Below are positions 395 through 14,891 of a stretch of 24,422 nucleotides of DNA, one piece after another. A program made the translations under genes and the position numbers. Below the pieces are notes generated by a model. The model had not been told where the DNA came from and made no database searches. It worked only from the letters and a program-made list of their open reading frames with translations. Within the stretch, counting starts at the first letter, position 1; each line of letters starts with the position of its first letter. The DNA comes from a virus (lineage: Duplodnaviria; Caudoviricetes), in the IMG/VR virus record IMGVR_UViG_3300020045_004810, positions 1 to 24,422 of that record, one strand, 5' to 3'.

Positions 395-2613
395 TGGCTA
401 TTACTTTAGAAGGATCAGGAACAAACGAAACTAGCATACCAGCTAATGACGGAACAATTACGTTAACAGCGACTCAGACGCCTAGTATCCCAGGTTCTAA
501 CTTTATATTCTCAATATCTCGGAATGGTGGTACTGCTGTAACTGAAACTACTACCGCAACTACGGTTACATTTGATAGCTTGGATGCTGGATCTTATTCA
601 TGCGGCTGTCGTGTTGGTACTGATATAGCAAAGGTTATTTATATCCCTATTTCTACTGCTTCACCAACTCCAGACCCTGACCCACCTACCCCACCTATTC
701 CTGTACCAATGGAGTATAGAGAAAGGTACCAAGGTAGTTTCTGCGATAAATTAGGCAATAACATTATAATTACTTTTCTCCAAAACGTTCCTGTAGCTAG
801 TATTATATTCCCTGTAGTGTCTATTCAATTTGCAGGCGAACAAGATGGCCCTGTAGTAGTTGATTATCCCGACAACGGAGAGTATAAGTTAACGCCAATT
901 AACGGTAGTCAATGCGAGATTAGAATTAAAGCAGAAGGGGACTTCGAGTTATCAAGTATGTACACTGCCGATGAAAAGGAATGGCGTGTTGTAATCTCAG
1001 GAGCATGGAAATGGACTGGATATTTAATCCCCGATAGCTGTATTGAGCCGTTTGCTTCTAAGCCCTATGATGTATCAGTTAGGGCTACGGATGCATTAGG
1101 ATTACTTAAAGACGTGCCATTTCAAAGGGATGATTTAACGAAGTATAAAGGTTTCTATTCGGATAAGGAAGTTATTCGGTTGTGCCTTTTAAAGACAGGC
1201 CTTAGTTTGAATATGCTAGTCGGGGTGAATACCTATGAAGCGTTAATGCAAGTTGGGAATAATCGTTCTCCTTTAGGTCAATCCTATATTAACGTCGAAC
1301 CATTTCTAAACGATGATGGAACGGCTATGGATTGTTATACAGTGATCGAATCAATATTAAGGCGATGGTCTGCAAGGTTACATCAATTCAATGGTGTATG
1401 GCAGATTGTGAATGTAATGGAGAAATCACTTGGTAATGTATTCGCTTATAACTTCAATCCTGATGGAGGTCATGAAAGTCCTGATGTTACTTTAGGTAAT
1501 TCACTAATTGCAGGTGGTCAGAATAGGTTATTAAAACCTGTCGGTAATACTTCATTTGCAAAGGCATTTAAACAGTCAGAGGCTTATTATGAGTACGGGT
1601 ATATATCGAACGCCTTGTTTAACGGAGACTTCGATACTTGGACTACTAAGCCTAACGGGTTACCTGATGGCTGGGAAATGACAGGAGGCACAAGTGGTAC
1701 GACTATGATTAGGTATCAAGATGGCTATGCTACATCAGATTACTTTATAGAAATAGGTAATGGTGGTACAGGCGGCATTAAGCCTATTACTCCAGTGCAG
1801 ATCAGACAATATGATTTCCCAACTATTACTTTTGATTTATACGCCATTGAGTCGATAGCTTACGGCGGGACAGGTAGAGGCCGTTATATATCTGTATTCA
1901 TTAGCAATAGCAATGGATTTTGGTACACCGCTGATGGATGGAAACAGACTAATCAAGCCTATGTTATAAAGAAAGATTCTGGTGATTTCTTAAAACAGAT
2001 GCGTATTGAAATTAAAGTCGATCCATTAGAGGATGATTACTTAATGAGTATTACTATACTTGCAGTCGGGCTAGCTAACGGTGTTCACTTTAAAACAAGC
2101 ATCAATAACGTAAATATTTCGGCCGGATTTGGGACAGGTAGAGAGAAAAACGCAATAGCTGAAAGCAACTTACAAGTGTTATTGACTAAGCAATCTTTCG
2201 TTCCTGACAGACTAGATATTTCGCATTCAGATGATAGTAACCCGACTAGGACTTCTGGAATTCGTATAAACAGCACTAATGATTTCTTTCCTTTAGTTAA
2301 CCCTAACGATGCTCCTTTTAGTTCGCTATGGAAACGTGCGGGTATAACAGAGTATTTACCATTATTAAGTACCGTAGCTAATACCGAATTAAGATTACAT
2401 CAAAGGGCGTATAGGATTATAGATTTCGAATATTACGGTGATCAGCCTTTGGATATAAATACTTTGCTTAGTGTTGACCTATTGGAGGGTACTTATATAT
2501 TCCTATCCGGTTCATTCGATTTGAAATCTGGAATACCTAGATTGAAGTTTGCGCAAGTGTTGACTGAAGCTGTGTTAGTGAATGAAACGCTTAAGATGGA
2601 TTATGGGGATTAA
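394..2613 (+). CDS. Tail tip/baseplate-region structural protein with an appended N-terminal beta-rich (Ig-like) domain
   Basis: 739 aa, translationally coupled to TMP. A Thr-rich N-terminal domain and a Pro-Thr linker (TASPTPDPDPPTPPIPVP) precede a core with WTGYLIPD...EPF...PYDVSVRATDALGLLKD, characteristic of post-TMP tail proteins of Bacteroidota phages. Confidence 0.75.
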   Translation: MAITLEGSGTNETSIPANDGTITLTATQTPSIPGSNFIFSISRNGGTAVTETTTATTVTFDSLDAGSYSCGCRVGTDIAKVIYIPISTASPTPDPDPPTPPIPVPMEYRERYQGSFCDKLGNNIIITFLQNVPVASIIFPVVSIQFAGEQDGPVVVDYPDNGEYKLTPINGSQCEIRIKAEGDFELSSMYTADEKEWRVVISGAWKWTGYLIPDSCIEPFASKPYDVSVRATDALGLLKDVPFQRDDLTKYKGFYSDKEVIRLCLLKTGLSLNMLVGVNTYEALMQVGNNRSPLGQSYINVEPFLNDDGTAMDCYTVIESILRRWSARLHQFNGVWQIVNVMEKSLGNVFAYNFNPDGGHESPDVTLGNSLIAGGQNRLLKPVGNTSFAKAFKQSEAYYEYGYISNALFNGDFDTWTTKPNGLPDGWEMTGGTSGTTMIRYQDGYATSDYFIEIGNGGTGGIKPITPVQIRQYDFPTITFDLYAIESIAYGGTGRGRYISVFISNSNGFWYTADGWKQTNQAYVIKKDSGDFLKQMRIEIKVDPLEDDYLMSITILAVGLANGVHFKTSINNVNISAGFGTGREKNAIAESNLQVLLTKQSFVPDRLDISHSDDSNPTRTSGIRINSTNDFFPLVNPNDAPFSSLWKRAGITEYLPLLSTVANTELRLHQRAYRIIDFEYYGDQPLDINTLLSVDLLEGTYIFLSGSFDLKSGIPRLKFAQVLTEAVLVNETLKMDYGD

Positions 2614-2643
2614 AAAGCCCCTACCAAATTAATGATAGAGGCT
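2612..2643 (-). terminator. Intrinsic terminator of the first leftward cassette
   Basis: Minus strand AGCCTCTATCA-TTAATT-TGGTAGGGGCT-TTTT: 11-bp stem, fully paired only on the minus strand (two G-U pairs), followed by a U-tract. It lies between convergent units. Confidence 0.8.
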
Positions 2644-2705
2644 AATCGATACCGGACTTGAACCGGTGGCCTCTAACGCGCTCTAGCTAACTGAGCTAAT
2701 CGAAT
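2643..2705 (-). ncRNA. tRNA-like element 1 (63 nt), anticodon arm missing
   Basis: ATTCGAT-TA-GCTC AGTTAGCTA GAGC-GCGTTAGAGGCC-ACCGG TTCAAGT CCGGT-ATCGATT-A. Acceptor stem 6/7 bp, D-arm, perfect T-arm, only 12 nt between the D- and T-arms, no encoded CCA. Confidence 0.75.
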
Positions 2706-2717
2706 AAAATTATTTAA

Positions 2718-2918
2718 TTAACCATCCCACTCGCTTAAGCTATTATAATCTTTTATAGTCATTTGATCATTCACGACCTCTTGTATGTCTAAACTAGAAA
2801 TACTATTATCCTTTAAAAAACCTTTATATCCCCCTTGATCTATCCAGTCTTTTGTTGACATAATAAAGTCAGCAGCTCCAGTATTAAATTTAACTTTTTT
2901 AATTGATATATTTTCCAT
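2718..2918 (-). CDS. Hypothetical protein (66 aa)
   Basis: ATG ORF in the leftward cassette. Confidence 0.6.
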   Translation of the reverse strand: MENISIKKVKFNTGAADFIMSTKDWIDQGGYKGFLKDNSISSLDIQEVVNDQMTIKDYNSLSEWDG

Positions 2919-2995
2919 TATCTATTAGATTATTTTAGTTATTATTTCTTCTTTTTTCATTTCCCGTTTGCTGTATTCATTTGTTCTTCAGTTAA

Positions 2996-3145
2996 TTATA
3001 ACTCTATGCAGTTTTTTAAATAAACCCAGCCTTCACTATAAGTTATAGCATAATCCCCGCAGTGTGGATGAATACCCAATACCTCAATAATACCCTTTTC
3101 TTTATGCCTAATTAACAAGCCTATATGTATAAATAATGCGTTCAT
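2996..3145 (-). CDS. Hypothetical protein (49 aa, MNALFIHIGLLIRHKEKG...)
   Basis: Translated by hand; fills the gap in the leftward cassette. Confidence 0.5.
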   Translation of the reverse strand: MNALFIHIGLLIRHKEKGIIEVLGIHPHCGDYAITYSEGWVYLKNCIEL

Positions 3146-3148
3146 AAT

Positions 3149-3256
3149 CTAATAAGGGCTATAATTCCAATAAATACCAGCAAAAAACGCTATGCCAGTT
3201 ATAAAGATTAACGCTAAGATGATTGTTGCGGTTGGTGTTCCTTCGATGTTTTGCAT
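3149..3256 (-). CDS. Small single-pass membrane protein (35 aa)
   Basis: MQNIEGTPTATIILALIFITGIAFFAGIYWNYSPY; ATG overlaps the upstream stop (TAATG). Confidence 0.55.
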   Translation of the reverse strand: MQNIEGTPTATIILALIFITGIAFFAGIYWNYSPY

Positions 3257-3594
3257 TATGATCTGTGGTTAGTTAATCGGTGAGAGAAAGCTAATACTCT
3301 TATTTGAATTTTATATTCAACATTAGCTTTCATTATTCCAGAAAATATTAATTCGTCATTTGATGACTCAGTAAGCCTAGATACATATCCGCTTCCTTCT
3401 CCTGTTACAATTGGATAGTAACATAAAAAAGTTTCTAAATCAGTATCTTTTTTAGGGGTATAAAAGACAACAATAGAGTCTATTGTTTTAAGCACATCTA
3501 TAGGTGCGTTGACTTTTGAGTTAATAATAGCTATTGCTCTATCGTGTATTTTCTTTTCTAAAGTACCCATATTATTTAATTCTAAAATATTCAT
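3256..3594 (-). CDS. Hypothetical protein (start may be the internal ATG at 3570)
   Basis: ORF track; tightly packed in the cassette. Confidence 0.6.
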   Translation of the reverse strand: MNILELNNMGTLEKKIHDRAIAIINSKVNAPIDVLKTIDSIVVFYTPKKDTDLETFLCYYPIVTGEGSGYVSRLTESSNDELIFSGIMKANVEYKIQIRVLAFSHRLTNHRS

Positions 3595-3892
3595 CCAAAA
3601 CTATTCTCTGTTCGTAAATTAAAAGCTCTTTAGGAAATATTGCATATCCGTCAAGATTAACCTCCATAGACTTTTTACTTGCTACAAACATGTATTCATT
3701 TGAAGATACTCTGGGGTTGTCATTGTGGAAACTAATGGAATTACCGGTGAATTCATCCGTTATAACGGAGTCGCTTTTAGCTTTTAAAATACCTTTTAAT
3801 GTATTTTTTCTAACCAGAATGTTGCAGTTTTTTACAACTAACTTATTTTTTGGTTTTTGGATTTTGAAGTTCATTCTTCTTTTATTTAACAC
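3572..3892 (-). CDS. Hypothetical protein (start uncertain)
   Basis: ORF track; first long ORF after the leftward promoter. Confidence 0.6.
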   Translation of the reverse strand: MLNKRRMNFKIQKPKNKLVVKNCNILVRKNTLKGILKAKSDSVITDEFTGNSISFHNDNPRVSSNEYMFVASKKSMEVNLDGYAIFPKELLIYEQRIVLDEYFRIK

Positions 3893-3911
3893 AGCTTCAT
3901 TGCTGATATAA

Positions 3912-3944
3912 CAAACGTAAGCATAGTTAGATTTGTATCCTAAA
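3912..3944 (-). promoter_or_regulatory. Bacteroidota-type promoter of the first leftward cassette
   Basis: Minus strand TTTA-N21-TACGTTTG matches the TTTG-N19-21-TAnnTTTG consensus. Confidence 0.6.
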
Positions 3945-3949
3945 TTTCA

Positions 3950-3982
3950 ACGTATCAATGTTGTTACAATTCATTATATTTG
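3950..3982 (+). promoter_or_regulatory. Promoter (-7 element TATATTTG at 3975-3982) with an upstream dyad site (3950-3969)
   Basis: Perfect TAnnTTTG 4 nt before ATG 3987; dyad ACGTATC-N6-GTTACAA. A second TAGATTTG lies at 3928-3935. Confidence 0.55.
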
Positions 3983-3986
3983 GGAT

Positions 3987-4775
3987 ATGTATAACGGAAC
4001 GGACATAATAATTTTTGTAGACACTTTAACGCCTTTGACAGCCGCTTCTGGGACTACAGCTAACTACAGGCCGTTGGTTTGTGGTACATCCAATGGTTTT
4101 CAAATGGAAGGTGAGTCTATTGTGTTTAGAAATAAATGCGATGGCGGGTTTGAAAATAGTGTTACAGGTTATATTACATGGGATTTTAATGTAGATGGCC
4201 ATGCTTATGCACTGAAAAGTAGTGAGAAACTATTAAAAGCTAATTTCAATGAGGTGGCTTCTTTAATGGTTGAAAAACAAGTATTCTGGGCTAGGATGGC
4301 AAGTTTAGATAATAGCGTAAGGAGAGAAGGGAAAGTAAGAATCTCGTCCTATAAGGAAACAGCAGACATGGATAATCCTTATAGTTTCAATGTAAGTTTT
4401 ACTGGCATAGGTAAACCAATAATAGAAGCAACCCCAGCCCCTCCAACTCCAGGGCTTTTACAAGCACGTTACGGAACAATTGCGGAGGGGATAACATTAA
4501 CTGAGGCTATCATTAATGCAGGGGCTATAGTTGAGTTTAGCAACAATGGATCGGTTACAGTTCCTTACAACTTCAGTACGTTCCTTATACCTTGGCTTGC
4601 TTTACCAGACGGGCAACCGAATAAGCTAACGGTAACAGATTTATCAGACGACCAAGAAACACCAATAGGGCCAACAGGGACATTTGGATCAGAAACGGAT
4701 ATAGGCGCTTACGATACTTACTTAGGAAATTTCCCCACTATTTACACAGGTTTAGGATTAAGATTTAACAACTAA
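3987..4775 (+). CDS. Tail tube-like protein with a C-terminal accessory domain
   Basis: Start moved to ATG 3987 (MYNGTDIIIFVD). LVCGTSNGFQM...RNKCDGGF...WDFNVDG...GKVRISSYKETADMDNPYSFNVSFTGIG is a siphophage tail-tube pattern. It is followed by an ATPAPPTPG linker and about 105 extra aa. Confidence 0.75.
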   Translation: MYNGTDIIIFVDTLTPLTAASGTTANYRPLVCGTSNGFQMEGESIVFRNKCDGGFENSVTGYITWDFNVDGHAYALKSSEKLLKANFNEVASLMVEKQVFWARMASLDNSVRREGKVRISSYKETADMDNPYSFNVSFTGIGKPIIEATPAPPTPGLLQARYGTIAEGITLTEAIINAGAIVEFSNNGSVTVPYNFSTFLIPWLALPDGQPNKLTVTDLSDDQETPIGPTGTFGSETDIGAYDTYLGNFPTIYTGLGLRFNN

Positions 4776-4779
4776 TAAT

Positions 4780-7143
4780 ATGGCATTTAATGCAATTGAT
4801 AACACACGAGTAAACGCGGCTAAGTTCCCAGATGATTGGTATGCAGCAGAAGTAGTAGCTGGGAAAGAAATTCCTTATGCGAGTATTGAAGCGGCTAAGA
4901 CTGCTATACCGAGCGCTGTAAGAATGAAAGGCCGTGCATTTTTAGTTACCATAAATGGTATCACTCAGGAATATTGGTGGAAAGATGATTTAATAGAACC
5001 AATACCTAAACGTGGTGATAAAAACTATACAAGTCTTGATTCTTTGGGTGTTAAAGGCGATGGAACTACAGATTATACAGATATCATTAATACAGCTATT
5101 AACGATTTAGCGGTGTTAGGGGGCGGTACTTTATTTGCACCTGTAGGAACTTATATTTGTAGAACAATAACCTTATTAGTTGGTGTTCAAATTATAGGTG
5201 AAAACAAACGGAAAACAGAGTTTAAACTAAAATCTGGTTATACAGGGGATTTATTTAATTGCTATAATTACACTAGAGGCGGCTTAACTAACTTTACCTG
5301 TAATGGCAACCGATCAGGAGGCGCAAGTGGTAGCGCTATTCATATCGCAGCAGATTTAGATAATACAGGAGCTAAAAGTACCGCTTCAGTTATCGAGAAC
5401 TTATTTATTGGTGATTTCACTAAAAATGGAATTGAAGCTATTGCTGTTGCTTGGATATTCGTTGTAAGGAATAACTATATTCAGTTCTGCGATGGGCATG
5501 GTATTTATAACACAACAACCGACAACGGATTTTATAACAACGATATATCTAATTGTGGCAAAAACGGGTTTTATAACTTTGGTGGTGCAAATACCAGGAT
5601 AACAGGAGGTAAAATTATTTCTTGTGGTAAGTCTGGTACTGATGCTACATTTGCTGGAGTTTACTTTGAAAGTAGTAATAGATGTATTATTACAAGTGTA
5701 GAATGTCAGGATAATTATTATTCAGGGTTTTATATATCCAACTCAGAACAAAACTCTTTTATAGGCGTATTGTCTGATGGTAATAACGCACATTCTAGAC
5801 CGGGCGCGACAACTTCAACTGGCACAACAACATGGGCTACAGGAAACGGATATGGATTTGATCTCTACAGGTGTAAACAATCTTTGTTTTATGGGCTTGC
5901 CACAAACTACTCAATTAGCACCCCCTCGCAGACTGCTGGTAGTAGGATTGTAGATTCTCAGAATATAGATTTTCAAATTAGAGAAACAAATCAATTAACT
6001 ACGTCAACTGTTACTAATTCATTTAATATTAAAAAACCAGATCCAGATTTAAATCCTAACAACTTTACAGCTTCTGCGCTTCTTACTTGGACAGCAGACC
6101 AAGCTAACATAAAAGTAGGCGGATCTGGTGCCGGGGCTGCTAATGGACTCGAAATAATTGGAGTTGCAAGTGCGAAACTCGCTAAATTTAATCAAGACCG
6201 ATCTACTTTAACGGGTAGCCTAGCTTTGGATTTAGCGGCAGGACTAATTATAGCTAACTCAAATAATATAGCTGCATCTGTACAATTAAACTTCTTCACT
6301 GATAGAGCACGAATTAGACTAAGTGGTACTGGGGCAGGTGCTGGGAATGGATTTTCTATTCAAGCTGCTGGTAATACTGAATTATGGGGTGTAGATGGCA
6401 ACGGTAAAGCTAGTTCCCCTAAGTTGGCAATAACAAATCCTGTCAACGGTGTTGTTGCTGATTTGATGTTAATATGGGATGCTACAAGTAAAGAGGTTAA
6501 AACAGCTAGACAATTAACTACAGATGATTATAGATTTAAGTATACCGTTAAAACCGGATCAACAAGTATAACTCCTGGATTTGCTAATGAGTTTATAGAA
6601 GCCAATACGACTGCTGCGCAAACTCAAACATTAGCTGTTGATGCCACTACCACTGTCGGGACAATTAAAGTATTTAAAAATAACGGCACATTCCCTTTAA
6701 CTATAACGCCTGCTTCAGGGGTGCTAATTGAAAGCGGTACAAGTTCAATTCAATTACCTTACTTTGGGGATACTTTATGGATATTAGCTTCATCGGCTAA
6801 TACTTGGAGGATAATAAACAAAAGCAGCTTAATTAGTAATAGAGGCTTAAGCAGAGTACTAACAACAACTTCAAGTATTTTAGCCACGGAATATGGCGCT
6901 AATGGGCAATTAACTATTTATGCTGATGCTTCTGGCGGACCGTTCACTATTACATTACCATTAGCCGCTACGGATCAAGGATTAACTACTAAGATTGTTA
7001 AAACAGATGCAAGCGCGAATACTATTACTGTTAGGGGTAATGGAACTGAGTTAATCAACAACGCTAACACCGATACTACATTAAGCACACAAAACGCATC
7101 ATTTATATTAGAATCAAACGGAACGAAACACTTTAAATTTTAA
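4780..7143 (+). CDS. Tail spike/fibre with a right-handed beta-helix (pectate lyase-like, putative depolymerase)
   Basis: SLGVKGDGTTDYTDIINTAI...GGGTLFAPVGTYI is the Pectate_lyase_3-type N-terminal motif. Asn/Gly-rich beta-helix rungs follow, then two C-terminal beta modules (...TITLPLAA...KIVKTDASANTITV). Confidence 0.8.
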   Translation: MAFNAIDNTRVNAAKFPDDWYAAEVVAGKEIPYASIEAAKTAIPSAVRMKGRAFLVTINGITQEYWWKDDLIEPIPKRGDKNYTSLDSLGVKGDGTTDYTDIINTAINDLAVLGGGTLFAPVGTYICRTITLLVGVQIIGENKRKTEFKLKSGYTGDLFNCYNYTRGGLTNFTCNGNRSGGASGSAIHIAADLDNTGAKSTASVIENLFIGDFTKNGIEAIAVAWIFVVRNNYIQFCDGHGIYNTTTDNGFYNNDISNCGKNGFYNFGGANTRITGGKIISCGKSGTDATFAGVYFESSNRCIITSVECQDNYYSGFYISNSEQNSFIGVLSDGNNAHSRPGATTSTGTTTWATGNGYGFDLYRCKQSLFYGLATNYSISTPSQTAGSRIVDSQNIDFQIRETNQLTTSTVTNSFNIKKPDPDLNPNNFTASALLTWTADQANIKVGGSGAGAANGLEIIGVASAKLAKFNQDRSTLTGSLALDLAAGLIIANSNNIAASVQLNFFTDRARIRLSGTGAGAGNGFSIQAAGNTELWGVDGNGKASSPKLAITNPVNGVVADLMLIWDATSKEVKTARQLTTDDYRFKYTVKTGSTSITPGFANEFIEANTTAAQTQTLAVDATTTVGTIKVFKNNGTFPLTITPASGVLIESGTSSIQLPYFGDTLWILASSANTWRIINKSSLISNRGLSRVLTTTSSILATEYGANGQLTIYADASGGPFTITLPLAATDQGLTTKIVKTDASANTITVRGNGTELINNANTDTTLSTQNASFILESNGTKHFKF

Positions 7144-7149
7144 CCCCTC

Positions 7150-7680
7150 ATGTACAACGAAATACAACCTAGACTCAGGGTAAACAGAACTAGCACAATG
7201 AATATAACAACGAGTTGGCAGAAGATCGACTTTAATGGCACTTCAATTACTAACGCTAATACATTCGGGAAAGATCCTTTAAGCGGTAATAATATGGTCT
7301 GGTGGGATTCGTCCGGCAAGCTGTTTAAGTTCTATGAACAGAACGATCAAAACTACGATTGTACGATGTTCTTATCAACTACGACTAATTTAATAACGGT
7401 TAAGGCTACTTTGCAATACCGTTGTGTTATACCTAACGCTGGAGGTGCTGGAGTTAATAAGTACTTCCCTTTTCCCGATGATGCTAGTCCTTATGTAGAT
7501 ATGGCAGATGCTACCTTACTAGCAACTCAGGTTAACCATAAAGCAGAAAAGATCCCATTGTATTTGGAATCTAGTATTAGGGCTAATGGGTTTTGGATAG
7601 AGATTAAGCTAAGTAATTCGCTAATTACTTTAGGAACTTGTACGTTGAATAACGCTGCGGTGTTAATACAAGGCAAGTAA
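7150..7680 (+). CDS. Putative tail-associated structural protein (176 aa)
   Basis: Beta-rich, directly after the spike and last gene before the terminator. Confidence 0.55.
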   Translation: MYNEIQPRLRVNRTSTMNITTSWQKIDFNGTSITNANTFGKDPLSGNNMVWWDSSGKLFKFYEQNDQNYDCTMFLSTTTNLITVKATLQYRCVIPNAGGAGVNKYFPFPDDASPYVDMADATLLATQVNHKAEKIPLYLESSIRANGFWIEIKLSNSLITLGTCTLNNAAVLIQGK

Positions 7681-7713
7681 AAGAAACTCACACAAACGAT
7701 ACAAGCACAAAGC

Positions 7714-7750
7714 AAAAAAGGCTATTAGAATCAAACCTAATAGCCTTAAT
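7714..7750. terminator. Terminator between the convergent tail and leftward units (probably bidirectional)
   Basis: Perfect 11-bp stem AAGGCTATTAG-N8-CTAATAGCCTT; the A-tract on the left gives a U-tract on the minus strand. Confidence 0.8.
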
Positions 7751-7751
7751 A

Positions 7752-7943
7752 TTATATTACCGATTCTAAGCATTGAAGTAGAAATATGAACAGATAAGCG
7801 CACACAGCTATTGATCCATATTTTATTATTGATTCTGGCAAAGTATTTTTAGTAAAGTTAATTTCCTTTGAATACCCATTATAATAAGCCTCTGAGTTTA
7901 CAATTGTGCAGTTTTTAGACATATAAAATCTTTCTATTTCCAT
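7752..7943 (-). CDS. Hypothetical protein with a C-terminal hydrophobic segment
   Basis: ORF track. Confidence 0.55.
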   Translation of the reverse strand: MEIERFYMSKNCTIVNSEAYYNGYSKEINFTKNTLPESIIKYGSIAVCAYLFIFLLQCLESVI

Positions 7944-7944
7944 G

Positions 7945-8121
7945 CTAATTGTTTTTTACAATATTAATAATCTCCCTAAAGGCTAATAAATATTCTTCAT
8001 CAGTTTTCACTAAATTACCTTTATGGTAAACTTTCCCTTCTTTTGTTATTTTAACCAATACCTCATTTACATTTGTTACTACCTGTAAAGAGTTTTCTTG
8101 TTGTGTTTCTATGTGTTTCAT
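7945..8121 (-). CDS. Hypothetical protein (58 aa, MKHIETQQENSLQ...)
   Basis: Translated by hand; ATGA overlap with the upstream gene. Confidence 0.6.
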   Translation of the reverse strand: MKHIETQQENSLQVVTNVNEVLVKITKEGKVYHKGNLVKTDEEYLLAFREIINIVKNN

Positions 8122-8309
8122 TTTTTATTGTTTTTATCACTTTCTATTGAATCAATTGATAATGGAATGAAGCTTAGTATCATAACTAAAACCATAACAT
8201 ATCTAGCCCATTCTTCCCAGTCAGTTATATATTTTAACCCGCTCCCTAGCCAAAATGCTAAATATATTAAAATCCAAACCATTACAACTTTTAATAACCA
8301 ATTTTTCAT
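8118..8309 (-). CDS. Small 2-TM membrane protein
   Basis: Two hydrophobic segments; coupled to both neighbours. Confidence 0.65.
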   Translation of the reverse strand: MKNWLLKVVMVWILIYLAFWLGSGLKYITDWEEWARYVMVLVMILSFIPLSIDSIESDKNNKK

Positions 8310-8680
8310 TACTTTTTATATTTAGAATAAGCAATCATACAGTTTTTAATTGATTCCATTAGTTCTGATACTTCATAATCTGTATAAGCCTCAATCCCCA
8401 TTGAGAAATCTGTGTTGTTTTTGATTATTTCTTTAAGCATAATTTCATCTTCTGAGTCTTTCGTGTTTACTGACCATTTTGAGTTAAATTCTTCTTTCGT
8501 CATTTCATTGTACAAATCTTTAGTTTTTATTTCCCATCCACATTTTGAACAGGTAAAAATAGAATCAGTATATACAATAACATAATTTCCAGGATGAAGA
8601 AATACCATTGTATTTTTACATTTATGGCAATAAATATTTTTAATTATTGTTGTATAAGCCGAATCATAAAATGTATTCAT
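8309..8680 (-). CDS. Zinc-ribbon hypothetical protein
   Basis: CHKC-x22-CSKC motif. Confidence 0.65.
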   Translation of the reverse strand: MNTFYDSAYTTIIKNIYCHKCKNTMVFLHPGNYVIVYTDSIFTCSKCGWEIKTKDLYNEMTKEEFNSKWSVNTKDSEDEIMLKEIIKNNTDFSMGIEAYTDYEVSELMESIKNCMIAYSKYKK

Positions 8681-8681
8681 C

Positions 8682-8861
8682 TTAAAACTGTATCGCTAGT
8701 TTCTTCCCCTTGTTCATTAACACCCATTCGTAAATCGCTTTACGGTCATTGGTCTGCAATTGATGTTTAGCCAGATGTATTACATAAGCTGGCACATCAC
8801 ATTTTTTAGCTGCGTACTGGATATCAGTATTCGAGTTGGAGATTTTAGTTTGATCTTTCAT
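8682..8861 (-). CDS. Hypothetical protein (59 aa), weak resemblance to DUF3606
   Basis: Hand translation MKDQTKISNSNTDIQYAAKKCDVPAYVIHLAKHQLQTNDRKAIYEWVLMNKGKKLAIQF. Confidence 0.55.
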   Translation of the reverse strand: MKDQTKISNSNTDIQYAAKKCDVPAYVIHLAKHQLQTNDRKAIYEWVLMNKGKKLAIQF

Positions 8862-8867
8862 ATTGAT

Positions 8868-9062
8868 TCAATTAAAAAATATATCGTTAAATTTTTTTTG
8901 CTCCGTTAGATCCGCCACCTTAATTTCGCTAACTTTAAACATTTCTATATCTGGATAATTCGGTACTATCACCATGCAAAAAATTTCTTTTATTATTGGA
9001 TCAAATATATAACTATCTATATATCCTATTTTTGGGCTATCTAAAATTACTATTGTTTTCAT
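8868..9062 (-). CDS. Hypothetical protein (64 aa)
   Basis: ORF track; operon packing. Confidence 0.6.
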   Translation of the reverse strand: MKTIVILDSPKIGYIDSYIFDPIIKEIFCMVIVPNYPDIEMFKVSEIKVADLTEQKKFNDIFFN

Positions 9063-9063
9063 A

Positions 9064-9390
9064 TTAAAGGCTATTTAAGTATGTATTGATCTGGTTGCTT
9101 ACATCTAATACTGATGTGCCATTAAACTCTTTCTCGGCTTTACAATCGGTTGTTTTAAATCTAGCGTATCCCCAATATTTCATACCCGCAGACATCATCG
9201 ACGAAAGTATTGATACACGTTCTAAGTTTGCTACATCAAAAATGCAGTCTTGTTTTTCTTTAGTTAAGTTCATGTTTTCTAGTTTATTGTATTTATCTAT
9301 TACTGATTGGTCTATTATTACCCTATCTTCAAATTTACCGAATAGCGTGTAACCCCAATATTGAATAAAACTATCGAGGCTGAATCTCAT
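9064..9390 (-). CDS. Hypothetical protein (108 aa)
   Basis: ORF track; operon packing. Confidence 0.65.
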   Translation of the reverse strand: MRFSLDSFIQYWGYTLFGKFEDRVIIDQSVIDKYNKLENMNLTKEKQDCIFDVANLERVSILSSMMSAGMKYWGYARFKTTDCKAEKEFNGTSVLDVSNQINTYLNSL

Positions 9391-9515
9391 ATAAACCGAT
9401 CTAAATCATCATCGTTTTCATTGCCGTTATTAATGTAACGGGTGTATTTGTGTGAGGCCCAGACTAGCACGATCACGGCTAGTATTGAAAGCAGGCAGGT
9501 TAAGAATGGGTTCAT
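9387..9515 (-). CDS. Small single-pass membrane protein (42 aa)
   Basis: MNPFLTCLLSILAVIVLVWASHKYTRYINNGNENDDDLDRFI; ATGA overlaps at both ends. Confidence 0.6.
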   Translation of the reverse strand: MNPFLTCLLSILAVIVLVWASHKYTRYINNGNENDDDLDRFI

Positions 9516-9718
9516 ATCAAGTTCTCTAAGTTAATTCCTTCAATTCTTGCTATCTCTCTAGCCTCGTATTCTTTTTTTCGGTTAATTGTGAAATGCAACG
9601 TTACAAAGCACTTCTCTATATCTAACGTTGGATTAGTCCTAGACCGAACGAAACGCATTTCCGGTACAGCATGATGGCAGATTACTTTGGTGCCGTTGGT
9701 GAATGTTATTTGGGTCAT
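9512..9718 (-). CDS. Hypothetical protein (68 aa)
   Basis: ORF track; ATGA coupling. Confidence 0.65.
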   Translation of the reverse strand: MTQITFTNGTKVICHHAVPEMRFVRSRTNPTLDIEKCFVTLHFTINRKKEYEAREIARIEGINLENLI

Positions 9719-10026
9719 ACCGTGCGTAGTGATTTAAGGTAGTGAACTACACGTTGTTTTGGGCTGCTATCCCCTCTTTTTAATTCGCCTATAAATCCAT
9801 CATTAACCTCACCTATTATAGGTAATACACCGTCTTTAGATCCACCGGTTATCCTAATAAGTTCTTGAACTTCTAACGGATGGTTTTTAAATGTTGGGCT
9901 ACAAGTTGTCGCTCCACAATGACCTAAAGCACAACTCCTGTTCAATGACCTCAAAACACCAGTACACCACTTATCTTCTGGTATCGCCTCAAACTTTGCT
10001 ATAAAGTATTCTAAATCGTATTCCAT
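9715..10026 (-). CDS. Hypothetical phage protein (CALGHCG motif)
   Basis: Start moved to ATG 10026 (MEYDLEYFIAKFEAIPEDKWCTG) because the upstream GTG lies inside a terminator hairpin. Confidence 0.7.
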   Translation of the reverse strand: MEYDLEYFIAKFEAIPEDKWCTGVLRSLNRSCALGHCGATTCSPTFKNHPLEVQELIRITGGSKDGVLPIIGEVNDGFIGELKRGDSSPKQRVVHYLKSLRTV

Positions 10027-10042
10027 TTCTTTTCTCTCTTTT

Positions 10043-10071
10043 AAAAACGGGTAGGGAACCACACCTACCCG
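10043..10071 (-). terminator. Intrinsic terminator/attenuator after the tRNA-like pair
   Basis: Minus strand CGGGTAGG-TGTGGTTC-CCTACCCG-TTTTT. Confidence 0.75.
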
Positions 10072-10094
10072 CCAACCTTAAACCTAAACTATTG

Positions 10095-10206
10095 TGAACA
10101 AAGAAGGGATCGAACCTTCATACTTTCTTAGTAATTACTAATTATGCTATACCCTCGAAGGGATCGTTTTGCATATACGCGCGTCTACCAATTCCGCCAT
10201 CTGTTC
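10095..10206 (-). ncRNA. tRNA-like element 2 (112 nt), Leu-type scaffold with an expanded non-canonical anticodon/variable region
   Basis: GAACAGA-TG-GCGGAATTGGTAGACGC-[about 61 nt]-GAAGG TTCGATC CCTTC-TTTGTTC-A-CAA. 7-bp acceptor stem, tRNA-Leu-type D-arm and perfect T-arm. Confidence 0.8.
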
Positions 10207-10297
10207 ATTTTGCCTTGCGTTACAACTACTGACTATTGTTTAATATCGCTGTGTACCTAATCGAATTAAATCAGCATCGTTATTAACAAGGACTTTG

Positions 10298-10344
10298 AGC
10301 CAAGTAAGGGATTCGAACCCTCATACATCCGGTTATGCTTGGCT
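10298..10344 (-). ncRNA. tRNA-like element 3 (47 nt), minihelix-like with acceptor stem and T-arm only
   Basis: AGCCAAG-CATAACCGGATGTAT-GAGGG TTCGAAT CCCTT-A-CTTGGCT; no D-arm or anticodon arm. Confidence 0.65.
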
Positions 10345-10403
10345 ACATTCACGAAAACCTAACTCCATAGTATTTACGATCACTAAACTAACGCTCTCTG
10401 GTA

Positions 10404-10435
10404 CAAGTATAGGGAGTTATTTTTAGCGTTGCAAC
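10404..10435 (-). promoter_or_regulatory. Leftward promoter for the tRNA-like unit
   Basis: Minus strand GTTG-N20-TATACTTG, one mismatch in each box of the Bacteroidota consensus. Confidence 0.5.
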
Positions 10436-10436
10436 T

Positions 10437-10474
10437 TTGTATCATGAACGTTACAAAACTTATTACTATCTTAG
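10437..10474 (+). promoter_or_regulatory. Dyad site (10437-10456) and -7-like element (TATCTTAG, 10467-10474) of the lysis cassette
   Basis: TTGTATC-N6-GTTACAA inverted repeat; the -7-like box ends 20 nt before ATG 10495. Confidence 0.5.
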
Positions 10475-10494
10475 CACAACTAAGAATATCTATC

Positions 10495-12741: not shown

Positions 12742-13220
12742 AATACACAGCCCTAATACTATTCATCTTGTTAACTATTGGCTGCGGGACTCGTAAAGCT
12801 GTAGTAGACTTGCAAACAGTTAAAACTAAAGATGAGGCTAAAACTGAGGCTACAGGATCGGTAAGTAAGCAATCTGAAGCTAACAAACAATCTGGCACCG
12901 ATGAACAGTTAGCTAAAACAGATGAAAAGCAAGAAAGCCGGACACGCGAGTTGTTTGATGAGAACGGTAAGCTAAAAGAGCGTATTACAGAGCTTATTAA
13001 TTCTAAGTCGGTTGATAACTCGAAACGAAATACTTATAACCGTGAGATTATTACTACGAGGTCTGACAGCGCATTTAAAGTTACTACATACCGATTGGTT
13101 ACGATTACTAGTAAAGATAAAAAAAAGACCACTACTACTGATAGAAATGGCCTTTACTGGCTTATAGGGGCTGTATGCGTTATTGGGTTAGCTTTCTGGT
13201 TGAAGCCGTGGGTTAAGTAG
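12738..13220 (+). CDS. Unimolecular spanin-like lipoprotein
   Basis: Lipoprotein signal MKYTALILFILLTIG-C, a Thr/Ser/Lys-rich periplasmic part and a C-terminal TM segment (LYWLIGAVCVIGLAFWL). Confidence 0.75.
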   Translation: MKYTALILFILLTIGCGTRKAVVDLQTVKTKDEAKTEATGSVSKQSEANKQSGTDEQLAKTDEKQESRTRELFDENGKLKERITELINSKSVDNSKRNTYNREIITTRSDSAFKVTTYRLVTITSKDKKKTTTTDRNGLYWLIGAVCVIGLAFWLKPWVK

Positions 13221-13617
13221 ATAGCTTTAAAACAATCCAATTACCGGCATCTATTTTATTAGCGTAAAGGAGGGAAGCAAAAGATTCTTTAGCTGTGTTT
13301 GTAAAAAAATCCCAATTATAGTTTCTGCTACATCTTGATTTAACAAAATAATTTTTAAAAACTCTGTTAAGGTCTATGGGTGGTTTCATCACCAATTCTC
13401 TACATTGTTCCTCTGTCAATTCAAATACATTCCCTATAAGATCCAATTTTTCTTTATATACGTTAAGTTTTATATATTCGTATTCTTTGCCAAATACTAC
13501 ATCTCCTAATATAATCTCTAATTCATTTATTGTTTGTAATAAACGAACTTTACTATAATTCTCTGGTACTTTAACAAGTATAATCTTAGCTTTACCAGTA
13601 TCAATTTCTATTTTCAT
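13213..13617 (-). CDS. Hypothetical protein (134 aa)
   Basis: ORF track; last gene of the third leftward cassette. Confidence 0.7.
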   Translation of the reverse strand: MKIEIDTGKAKIILVKVPENYSKVRLLQTINELEIILGDVVFGKEYEYIKLNVYKEKLDLIGNVFELTEEQCRELVMKPPIDLNRVFKNYFVKSRCSRNYNWDFFTNTAKESFASLLYANKIDAGNWIVLKLST

Positions 13618-13703
13618 ATTCTATTTTGTTTAAAACCGTTCATCATTTGGATCTAATGCCTCAACGTCCTGAGAGATTAGAAGTATTATTAGGAGGTATG
13701 CGC

Positions 13704-13919
13704 TTATGTAGCGCATGGCTGATTCGGGTTAACTATTGCCGTAAAGCCTTTATACAACAAGTAATGCACGAAACTTTTAGAAGTAAACTCTTTAGTTCTA
13801 GCCGACCAACAAGTAAAAGCGTCTTCAATTGATAACCCTTTAGTTTCCGGTAAATCATGTATTACGTTGATTTCTTTATCTATTCCATTTACTTGGAATG
13901 TTATTTTACATTCTTTCAT
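13704..13919 (-). CDS. Hypothetical protein (71 aa)
   Basis: ORF track. Confidence 0.6.
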   Translation of the reverse strand: MKECKITFQVNGIDKEINVIHDLPETKGLSIEDAFTCWSARTKEFTSKSFVHYLLYKGFTAIVNPNQPCAT

Positions 13920-13983
13920 ATCTCACTTATTGCTTTAAATAATTTGTAACATACCCATAGCCATAATAGGCAGAGTCCGGTGG

Positions 13984-14364
13984 CTAACATATTGTTAGTT
14001 CTTCGTTGTGGAAAAAGTAGTATAAGTTTTGTAATCTATGAACAGGCATCTCTTTAACTGAAAATTCATTATTGCTTAAATACATACGATCACCACAAAT
14101 CATCATATCGCCATTCTCATGAATAAACCATATGTCATCGGCTATAATGTCTTTTACAAACCCAAACTTCAATAACCATTGCTCGGTTAAAGGTATCGAA
14201 TCATAAGAATCTTGAACGTTGTAAGTGTTAATTAAGTTGTTAACCGAATCAGAACAACCTATATAAAACTGGCTATTTTCTTTAGCTATTTTTATTACTG
14301 TTCTTTGCTTACCAAAATAATTAATATAGTTTCCGATACGCACTTCTTTTGCTTCTATCATCAC
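13984..14364 (-). CDS. Conserved hypothetical Bacteroidota phage protein
   Basis: AKEVRIGNY...IPLTEQWLLKFGF...VHRLQNLYYF is a recurrent family signature. Confidence 0.8.
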   Translation of the reverse strand: MMIEAKEVRIGNYINYFGKQRTVIKIAKENSQFYIGCSDSVNNLINTYNVQDSYDSIPLTEQWLLKFGFVKDIIADDIWFIHENGDMMICGDRMYLSNNEFSVKEMPVHRLQNLYYFFHNEELTIC

Positions 14365-14434
14365 GCCGTATATTTAACAAACCACACCGCTATTGCCAGG
14401 AAAATGGTTAGTAGTAAAATTGATAGTTTCATAG

Positions 14435-14587
14435 TTAGTCGATTTTAAACTGTTCCTTTAGGTGATTAATTAATTCAACAGCTTGTTCTTTATTAATCCA
14501 CTCCATACCATGATCAGATTTAATAATAATCATTATTTGATTTTCTTCATCTTTAATGTCTACTTCTAAATATCTGCTAATTTCCAT
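14435..14587 (-). CDS. Hypothetical protein (50 aa, MEISRYLEVDIKDEENQ...)
   Basis: Hand translation; TAATG-coupled to the upstream gene. Confidence 0.6.
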   Translation of the reverse strand: MEISRYLEVDIKDEENQIMIIIKSDHGMEWINKEQAVELINHLKEQFKID

Positions 14588-14781
14588 TATTTATCCTCCG
14601 ATTTGTAAATGTTGATAATTGAGTAAACTGTTGGCGGTGTCATTCGGTACGATTTGCAGATGCCATTAATGATAGCTGACTTCATGCCACCCGCTTGTAA
14701 TTCTTGTTGATACCTTGTTTTTATTCGCTCATTACGTTCTAAACGTTTTCGCTTGTTTTCTGTAATTGTTTCTCTTGACAT
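14587..14781 (-). CDS. Small HTH regulator (64 aa)
   Basis: Start moved to ATG 14781. ERNERIKTRY...KSAIINGICKSYRMTPPTVYSII has an HTH pattern; first gene of a divergent unit. Confidence 0.7.
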   Translation of the reverse strand: MSRETITENKRKRLERNERIKTRYQQELQAGGMKSAIINGICKSYRMTPPTVYSIINIYKSEDK

Positions 14782-14784
14782 ATT

Positions 14785-14891
14785 CAAAGGTAATACAAAT
14801 ATTAATATGTTGTATATAATATCTTATAAAATATTTAATAAACAAAAAAGTAAAATAAATTTGCATGATAAATATATAGTCCGTACTATTG
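14785..14891. promoter_or_regulatory. Divergent promoter pair (early control region)
   Basis: Minus: TACCTTTG (14785-14792). Plus: TTTG(14860-14863)-N20-TACTATTG(14884-14891). Confidence 0.65.

Follow-up and report, generated by a model that had tools for sequence, protein, structure and literature searches.

The contig IMGVR_UViG_3300020045_004810, a viral sequence of 24.4 kilobases (kb) that was analysed over its entire length and is called the window here, carries three minus-strand sequences shaped like transfer RNAs (tRNAs), which we designate E1 (2643-2705), E2 (10095-10206) and E3 (10298-10344). Because its matches to PHROG families (tape measure, virion protein, major tail, tail fibre, endolysin, recombination, helicase and small terminase) span tail and structural, recombination, helicase and small terminase genes, the window represents a portion of a tailed phage, a siphovirus of roughly 40 kb whose complete relatives measure 40-42 kb. 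E2 and E3 are part of an array predicted to form one non-coding transcript, in the order promoter, leader hairpin, E3, hairpin H, E2 and terminator-like hairpin. We conclude that this is a real, selected array of non-decoding RNAs, accompanied by one stray copy (E1) that is possibly decaying. The leader and hairpin H are the best-conserved parts of the locus, and both were absent from an earlier reading of this DNA (hereafter the original prediction), which had treated the three tRNA-like sequences as a single system of tRNA mimics.

Anatomy of the elements and of the array

The existence, coordinates and anatomy of the three elements stand as originally predicted, as does their placement on the minus strand like the adjacent leftward open reading frames (ORFs). 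The window contains three perfect T-arms, defined as 5 base pairs (bp) with G53-C61 and a TTCRA loop, whereas 100 dinucleotide shuffles yield a mean of 0.04 and a maximum of 1. Acceptor positions are paired at 6/7 in E1 (with U.U at position 2) and at 7/7 in both E2 and E3. The proposed check with tRNA-finding programs gave a divided result, in that ARAGORN reports 0 genes in the window and Rfam RF00005 matches E1 (38.3 bits) and E2 (34.6 bits) above its gathering score of 29, leaving the anticodon arm unaligned in both, but has no match to E3 at E<=10. An anticodon stem of 5 bp with a loop of 7 nucleotides (nt) is absent from all three elements by Rfam, ARAGORN and folding. The predicted lack of an anticodon arm is therefore upheld, but the predicted total loss of the D-arm from E3 is not, since a 3-bp D-like hairpin remains. 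Similarly, CCA is encoded by none of the three (the nucleotides after N73 are GCC, CAA and AAA), although this is not a fixed trait because the E2 orthologue in the related phage L406 does encode it. When each element is folded singly the z-scores are weak (E1 -1.1, E2 -0.5, E3 -2.1), and thus the case for the elements is built on motifs and covariation, not on energy.

E2 is a shell of the leucine tRNA (tRNA-Leu) type, with a 7-bp acceptor, a Leu D-arm, a T-arm and A73. Between its D- and T-arms lies a 61-nt region of two hairpins that has no 7-nt anticodon loop. E3 is a minimal element in which a 7-bp acceptor-like stem, the D-like hairpin (10326-10337, between acceptor and T-arm, with a 6-nt loop ending in GG that is kept in relatives) and a T-arm are joined without an anticodon arm. 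The stretch upstream of E3 (10399-10352) was also weighed as an extension of its D-arm and acceptor, but it is the conserved leader hairpin and this reading was rejected. Other identities were also rejected. There is no tag reading frame and no ARAGORN or Rfam match in the window to transfer-messenger RNA (tmRNA). Y RNAs of the YrlA type have a permuted order of T-arm, closed acceptor and D-arm, and are excluded by the normal arm order seen here and by the lack of an Rfam match at E<=10. A tRNA remnant at an attP or integration site is contradicted by the presence of both acceptor strands, and by the absence of the tyrosine integrase family PF00589 from all five relatives examined (serine recombinases were not searched).

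Upstream of E3, the predicted array promoter (10404-10435, minus strand) consists of GTTG, 20 nt and TATACTTG, which we take to be a Bacteroidota promoter of the -33/-7 type, and would start transcription near 10399. The same site also scores as TTGCAA/TATACT in a promoter scan, and a comparable -7 box stands in front of the leader in relatives L407 and L408. From the promoter motif and from A-rich starts, we infer that the host probably belongs to the phylum Bacteroidota. Repeats resembling TGTWAC/TGATAC occur around the array promoter in the window (10420-10480), in L406 (16920-16960) and in L408 (17750-17830); a similar word is found inside H, and these repeats are possibly operator sites.

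The conserved leader (10352-10399, minus strand) forms a hairpin at 10352-10378 whose CTATGGAGTTAG loop region is invariant in the window, L406, L407, L408 and L440. Two of its six predicted pairs are changed on both sides. The GGAG in this loop resembles a CsrA-type site.

Hairpin H (10212-10293, minus strand) is a long bulged stem-loop with a conserved base, a variable top and a conserved bulged base. It begins 4 nt past the last paired base of E3 and ends 5 nt short of E2, and the distance from H to the next tRNA-shaped gene is 4-5 nt in 4/4 cases. On its other side, H likewise starts only a few bases past the acceptor stem of the preceding element. Nine copies were found in six phages (the window phage, L406, L407, L408, L411 and L440). 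In their alignment 93.6% of 141 cells are paired and 7/16 pairs show double changes, while 0/500 shuffles reach the covariation score and slid controls are 33-48% paired; these controls overstate the support because the structure came from aligning eight of the nine copies, and because the copies are related. H has no Rfam match. A pattern search of IMG/VR returned six matches, comprising three known relatives, one new relative (L440) and two chance matches (L441 and L445), and thus H appears so far to be confined to this phage group.

The array is closed by a terminator-like hairpin (10043-10071, minus strand; an 8-bp stem followed by T5) that a simple scan missed but that is kept in L406, L407, L408, L411 and L440. 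Its position upstream of a leftward ORF cassette invites a reading in which leader, E3 and H act in cis, by put-like antitermination or attenuation, to carry transcription past the terminator into the cassette, with the tRNA shapes as passengers. In favour of it, no parts vary less than H and the terminator, H precedes the terminator in every case, its bulged base is conserved and ten small ORFs follow downstream. Nevertheless, the spacing between H and terminator ranges from ~20 to >300 nt, some relatives carry two copies of H, there is no Rfam match to H, and such a mechanism leaves the class-wide covariation of the shells described below unexplained. We therefore regard cis antitermination as quite improbable.

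Slot and cargo in related phages

Direct search with a single tail protein did not recover relatives of the window phage; they were recovered with a 15-sequence alignment, and those that keep the array slot share 63-64% tail-protein identity with it. Among cultured phages, BLAST matches to the array and to E1 were limited to tRNA alignments that were short or gapped. The slot frame is kept in five relatives (L406, L407, L408, L411 and L440), with L411 lacking the leader side, whereas the cargo past H differs. In L406 it consists of the E2 orthologue, then another copy of H and a tRNA-Arg-like gene; in L411 it is an intact tRNA-Ser; and L407, L408 and L440 have none. In L440, the leader is followed by a shrunken-arm tRNA-like element, whose shortened anticodon stem bears a 6-nt loop, by a permuted tmRNA and, directly before H, by a further acceptor-like stem. 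Because tRNA-Ser, the tRNA-Arg-like gene and tmRNA occur as cargo, the shells share their slots with known substrates of RNase P. The permuted tmRNA genes of L440 (1163-1405, plus strand, 64 bits) and L446 (1276-1497, minus strand, 55 bits) score above the gathering score of RF04321 and lie in small-RNA arrays of two roughly 40-kb relatives.

The intact tRNA-Ser of L411, in the slot of E2, and the extra tRNA-Arg-like gene of L406 bear on the condition set in advance that intact tRNAs at these loci in relatives, together with uncompensated decay of the stems here, would refute the original prediction. This condition is borne out in part, but the sequences of these genes differ from E2 and they do not qualify as its intact ancestors. 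The L406 orthologue of E2 carries five substitutions and one insertion that break no pair, all in loops except for one change from G.U to G-C. E3 orthologues preceded by the same leader are found in L406/L407 and in L408, with compensation at 3/7 acceptor pairs and 3/4 T-stem pairs among only three distinct sequences, and an anticodon arm is missing from every copy. In contrast, E1 lies 7.4 kb from the array and has no orthologue in any of L406, L407 and L408, where its slot holds other ORFs. Consequently, the idea that the three elements form one system is abandoned. E1 stands apart as an accessory copy, at the 3′ end of another cassette, of an armless class that is related.

The surroundings of the elements are variable. 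Small ORFs of no assignment form three leftward cassettes among the late genes (2718-3892, 7752-10026 and 13213-14787, minus strand), which break up the rightward structural genes and whose gene content differs between relatives; none of the cassette ORFs of the window has a Pfam, PHROG or Atlas assignment. One minus-strand ORF of 66 amino acids (2718-2918), without a family, stops 12 nt upstream of E1. Another, of 68 amino acids (9512-9718, minus strand), lies downstream of the array and is kept in L406, L407, L408 and L411, again without a family and with nothing found that points to binding of the array RNAs. An intrinsic-terminator-like hairpin (2612-2643, minus strand; 11 pairs and a T run) abuts the 3′ end of E1, convergent with the virion protein gene at 394-2613, and L408 has a terminator-like hairpin at the matching place without E1.

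Classes of shells in viral and cellular genomes

E1 consists of an acceptor paired at 6/7, a D-arm without G18G19 and a T-arm, with a linker of 12 nt where 22-23 are usual. We searched IMG/VR for D- and T-arms joined by a short linker, leaving the acceptor unconstrained, and found 122 stretches in 12/64 parts, or an estimated ~670 viral stretches. Pooled with 28 stretches from another search, these yield 112 distinct elements. The acceptor, although outside the pattern, is paired at 6/7 or better in 98/112, compared with 819/20000 when strands are cross-paired, and positions 15 and 48 form G:C in 66 elements, A:U in 25 and another combination in 7. E1 shares the linker of at most 13 nt, the acceptor of at least 6/7 and the 15:48 pair (G15:C48) of this class. 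However, it has A-G in the D-loop where 97/98 members have the GG of the elbow, and a mispair at acceptor position 2 that occurs in 0/98. Since E1 is also absent from all three relatives, it may be decaying, a possibility that we take seriously while leaning against it. CCA is encoded in 7/95 armless elements, and their acceptors are diverse (75 distinct 5′ strands among 95). Three armless paralogues with differing linkers (L112, L113 and L114) lie on one 180-kb contig and show a compensatory change at acceptor position 2.

Among 60 lineage representatives, linker lengths peak at 8-9 nt (19 and 14 lineages). In the 8-nt linkers, base 1 pairs with base 4 in 16/19 lineages, compared with 11.5 on average in shuffles (p 0.003, uncorrected for the six tests made), presumably as a stump capped by a CUUG-type tetraloop. 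An alignment of these 19 members with E1 is paired in 97.1% of cells compared with 30-44% in slid controls, the D-stem and part of the T-stem being preset by the search pattern. Despite this peak and a trough, the linkers form a continuum, because a control search for linkers of 14-21 nt gives ~2100 viral stretches, with 111 distinct elements divided between 14-17 nt (11) and 18-21 nt (100). The elements of this control (L153-L273) are mostly shrunken anticodon hairpins with 3-6-nt loops and mostly perfect acceptor stems.

Within 185,579 cellular genomes the 7-10-nt armless form is found in only ~150 stretches; 106 matches were re-located in 120 loci, and 69 of these are well paired. Neighbours were determined for 39 of the 69, chosen for long flanks and with Levilactobacillus copies thinned (76/116 picked ORFs), and comprise terminase, portal, head or tail genes at 14 loci, phage recombination genes at 3, other PHROG families at 11 and no match at 11. 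One armless element is present in 12 Levilactobacillus copies from 10 species (L467, L470, L474, L486, L491, L499, L500, L510, L524, L536, L574 and L584), with an identical 9-nt linker and at least five different upstream flanks. It adjoins terminase genes in 2/3 loci tested, and its hosts are cultured. Genomes of the Cytophagales type (L511, L512, L513, L540, L548 and L484) share a common D-arm/T-arm fragment with a poorly paired acceptor, frequently directly after another T-arm, that is possibly a conserved remnant of a chromosomal tRNA operon.

The 3′ part of E3 matches an element that lies, without annotation, among the clustered tRNAs of Microbacterium phage A3Wally, and 10/11 viral matches are D-armless tRNA-like genes whose anticodon arm is intact, so that E3 looks like a D-armless element minus its middle. 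In the D-armless class (L001 2463-2538; L274-L279 and L281-L284), the anticodon arm precedes a D-loop-like segment ending in GGATRCAT. The A3Wally element, at 2463-2538 of the region L001 (MZ150783.1 91162-94785), is itself D-armless, and several GenBank tRNA labels of that phage conflict with ARAGORN, with the anticodon read as a codon (for example, tgt carries a Cys label and a Thr call).

These observations can be read as the decay of tRNA pseudogenes that are at present functionless. E1, with its two lesions and lack of an orthologue, fits this description; the T-loop of E3 is degraded in L408, anticodon-arm lengths form a continuum, and E3 resembles an internal deletion of the D-armless class. 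However, the E3 orthologues compensate even though no copy has an anticodon arm, the E2 insert is kept in L406, the Levilactobacillus copies keep an identical linker despite changes of flank, and the 8-nt linkers retain their pairing across lineages. Decay is thus already weakened for E2 and E3, and as a general account we consider it improbable. The original proposal of selection for a non-decoding form is supported for E2 and E3, whose orthologues carry pair-preserving or compensatory changes, and for the classes to which E1 and E2 belong.

For E2, we searched for a Leu D-arm followed by a 45-75-nt linker, with U48 and A73 outside the pattern. This Leu-shell pattern occurs in 120 stretches in 9/64 parts of IMG/VR (an estimated ~860 viral stretches). 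Acceptors are paired at 7/7 in 68/92 distinct elements and at 6 or more positions in 75/92. CCA follows in 3/75, and inserts are unrelated across lineages. Among paired members (74/89), U48 is present in 72/74 and A73 in 60/74. A further Leu shell, in phage G004, stands next to a tRNA-Tyr-like gene and a permuted tmRNA. E2 contains every element of leucine identity, namely A73, A15-U48, G18G19, A20a and U54-A58, by a list that follows E. coli rules and not those of the likely host. According to one study, leucyl-tRNA synthetase (LeuRS) requires A73, A15-U48, G18G19 and A20a and can dispense with the anticodon arm, and tRNA-Leu variants without this arm remain chargeable (PMC9976931). E2 could therefore serve specifically to carry leucine into a non-ribosomal reaction, as the retention of A73 and U48 by the class would suggest. 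Yet A73 is missing in 14/74 members, no aminoacyl-transferase is found among the flanking ORFs or the window ORFs, and this proposal covers E2 only. We judge it very unlikely.

Neither class has a constant companion. An Rfam scan of 20 class loci reveals no recurring partner RNA, no fixed protein partner emerges from the 121 of 149 picked flanking ORFs that were scanned, and no second class member was found within the same locus at 64 armless and 46 Leu-shell loci. A tRNA lies within 400 nt at 8/64 armless loci and 10/46 Leu-shell loci.

Non-decoding modules and their precedents

We propose that E2 and E3 are anticodon-less modules that host tRNA-maturation enzymes likely cut from a cargo-swapping array as stable non-decoding RNAs, a hypothesis for which our confidence is evenly divided between belief and doubt. 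In the relatives, cargo is exchanged while the frame of leader, E3, H, cargo and terminator persists, and conservation or covariation is seen in the acceptor stem, the T-stem and the elbow contacts, whereas the anticodon region is left free. The array would be transcribed from ~10399 to ~10043. In each shell RNase P would cut the 5′ end, RNase Z or exonucleases would trim the 3′ end and CCA would then be added. E2 would be chargeable by LeuRS but non-decoding, and therefore the shell would protect and present its insert. Excision of the shells would also set the ends of H between E3 and E2. This view of the shells as modules for processing and stability is suggested by two considerations: the half that is kept is the half that RNase P, RNase Z and the CCA-adding enzyme measure, and the same slots also hold tRNA and tmRNA. 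Indeed, RNase P reads the acceptor/T stack and the elbow (PMC4919913).

Several observations weigh against this hypothesis. L407 and L408 carry an H-H tandem without an intervening shell, and thus H does not always depend on tRNA-like flanks and could be a spacer of the RNase III type instead of a product. The T-loop of E3 in L408 is 9 nt long and non-canonical. The more distant complete relatives G003 and G005 have no RF00005 match and no real match to leader or H, showing that the array is dispensable. The near-identity of E2 and its L406 orthologue could reflect recent exchange instead of constraint, and class members that are unrelated may owe some of their pairing to ancestral tRNAs. Finally, stepwise decay would yield the same continuum of linkers from 6 to 21 nt, with ~2100 stretches at 14-21. 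The H tandems without shells and the L408 T-loop are among the points that hold our confidence at this level.

Compatible with the processing step of this hypothesis is the possibility that mature shells are non-decoding decoys that soak up defence enzymes reading the acceptor end or elbow, such as toxSAS, GNAT and nucleotidyltransferase toxins. The spared half of the tRNA is the part that such enzymes recognise; in toxSAS and GNAT toxins this involves binding to CCA and reading of the acceptor stem (10.1101/2024.07.05.602228). The great diversity of acceptors, the exchange of shells with real tRNAs, and the rarity of the armless class in cells, where it often lies beside prophage genes, would all agree with such a role. 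On the other hand, no defence or anti-defence neighbour recurs among the 121 flanking ORFs, an ordinary tRNA would titrate equally and decode too, and the large variable insert of E2 and H are left unexplained. We consider acceptor-end decoys a minority possibility, though one that merits attention. A broader version, in which phages hold, in swappable arrays, a large and uncatalogued arsenal of shells that act as RNA anti-defence factors, as chargeable non-decoding decoys for enzymes attacking the acceptor end, with the shell also freeing and protecting passengers such as H, is likewise speculative and unlikely to be correct as a whole.

Of the roles originally suggested, decoys for the anticodon nucleases PrrC, RloC, VapC and AriB, the leading option there, are the weakest. 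Shells could not be cut at the anticodon loop, and arrays mix them with real tRNAs, as might suit a decoy. However, the anticodon loop is the recognition target of PrrC and VapC, and the shells lack the loop that these enzymes recognise. Moreover, rescue by a phage tRNA-Tyr against retron Ec78 is reported to be lost on anticodon change (10.1101/2023.03.15.532788). Because the shells are without the target and an anticodon change abolished this rescue, we regard the proposal as extremely unlikely.

If shells prove to be decoys or carriers, they would add RNA as a new arm to the counter-defences of phages and would be the natural counterpart of the engineered tRNA scaffold. In a literature search that left most subscription and older papers, the original T4 and T5 work and the Lak supplements outside its reach, neither the armless and Leu-shell classes nor H were found described. 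The word 'phage' occurs 0 times in a review of non-canonical tRNAs (PMC7609411), and in the available text of PMC13434031 'anticodon-less' refers only to a nuclease product.

Known RNAs resemble the elements to differing degrees. Canonical tRNAs (RF00005, and class II tRNA-Leu for E2) match them in the acceptor, in the D- and T-arms and in the contacts of the elbow, and E1 and E2 exceed the gathering score, but a canonical tRNA has the 5-bp stem with 7-nt anticodon loop that E1, E2 and E3 do not. The tRNA-like domain of tmRNA and the mascRNA/menRNA family are likewise tRNA-shaped, lack a decoding anticodon and are processed by RNase P (PMC4919913); permuted tmRNAs sit in the same arrays in L440 and G004, whereas mascRNA is eukaryotic. 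Lak megaphages carry oversized pseudo-tRNAs with conserved inserts, read as introns (10.1101/356790 and PMC8346664). Like E2, these are frames of phage tRNAs that exceed the expected size and contain conserved inserts. Unlike E2, they are read as decoding tRNAs with assigned anticodons and belong to megaphages, and the available text of 10.1101/356790 treats no armless forms or spacer hairpin.

Looser precedents are rnaC and rnaD of phage T4 (the species 1 and 2 RNAs; AF158101, 70908-71046 and 71053-71171), which PMC3014915 describes as stable non-decoding RNAs of a phage tRNA cluster with unknown roles. As the shells do, rnaC ends in a T-arm, but no Leu D-arm is seen in it and no canonical T-loop is seen in rnaD, and comparison by eye, without alignment, reveals no similarity of either RNA to E1-E3 or H.

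The closest precedent is RNA1 of phage T5 (AY543070, 30501-30644), which GenBank describes as a 'tRNA-like stable RNA with unknown functions'. Both RNA1 and E2 have a Leu-type D-arm (in E2 with A15, G18G19 and U48), a two-hairpin insert that replaces the anticodon and variable arms, a GAAGG/CCTTC T-stem, a paired acceptor without encoded CCA, and a location in a phage cluster of tRNAs or small RNAs. The T5 RNA differs in its 6-bp acceptor-like stem followed by UUG and in its unrelated insert, and its annotation is that of a stable RNA, a status that is only predicted for E2. T5 is also a large enterobacterial phage, in contrast to the roughly 40-kb siphovirus of the window. To judge from these shared features, E2 belongs by design with T5 RNA1. 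This design is now present in a small unrelated phage, in an array where shells, real tRNAs and tmRNA take turns in the slots, and pattern scans suggest hundreds of viral copies per design that ARAGORN misses. With its 360-nt cassette and natural variants of gain and loss, the array makes the old question of the stable RNAs of T4 and T5 directly testable.

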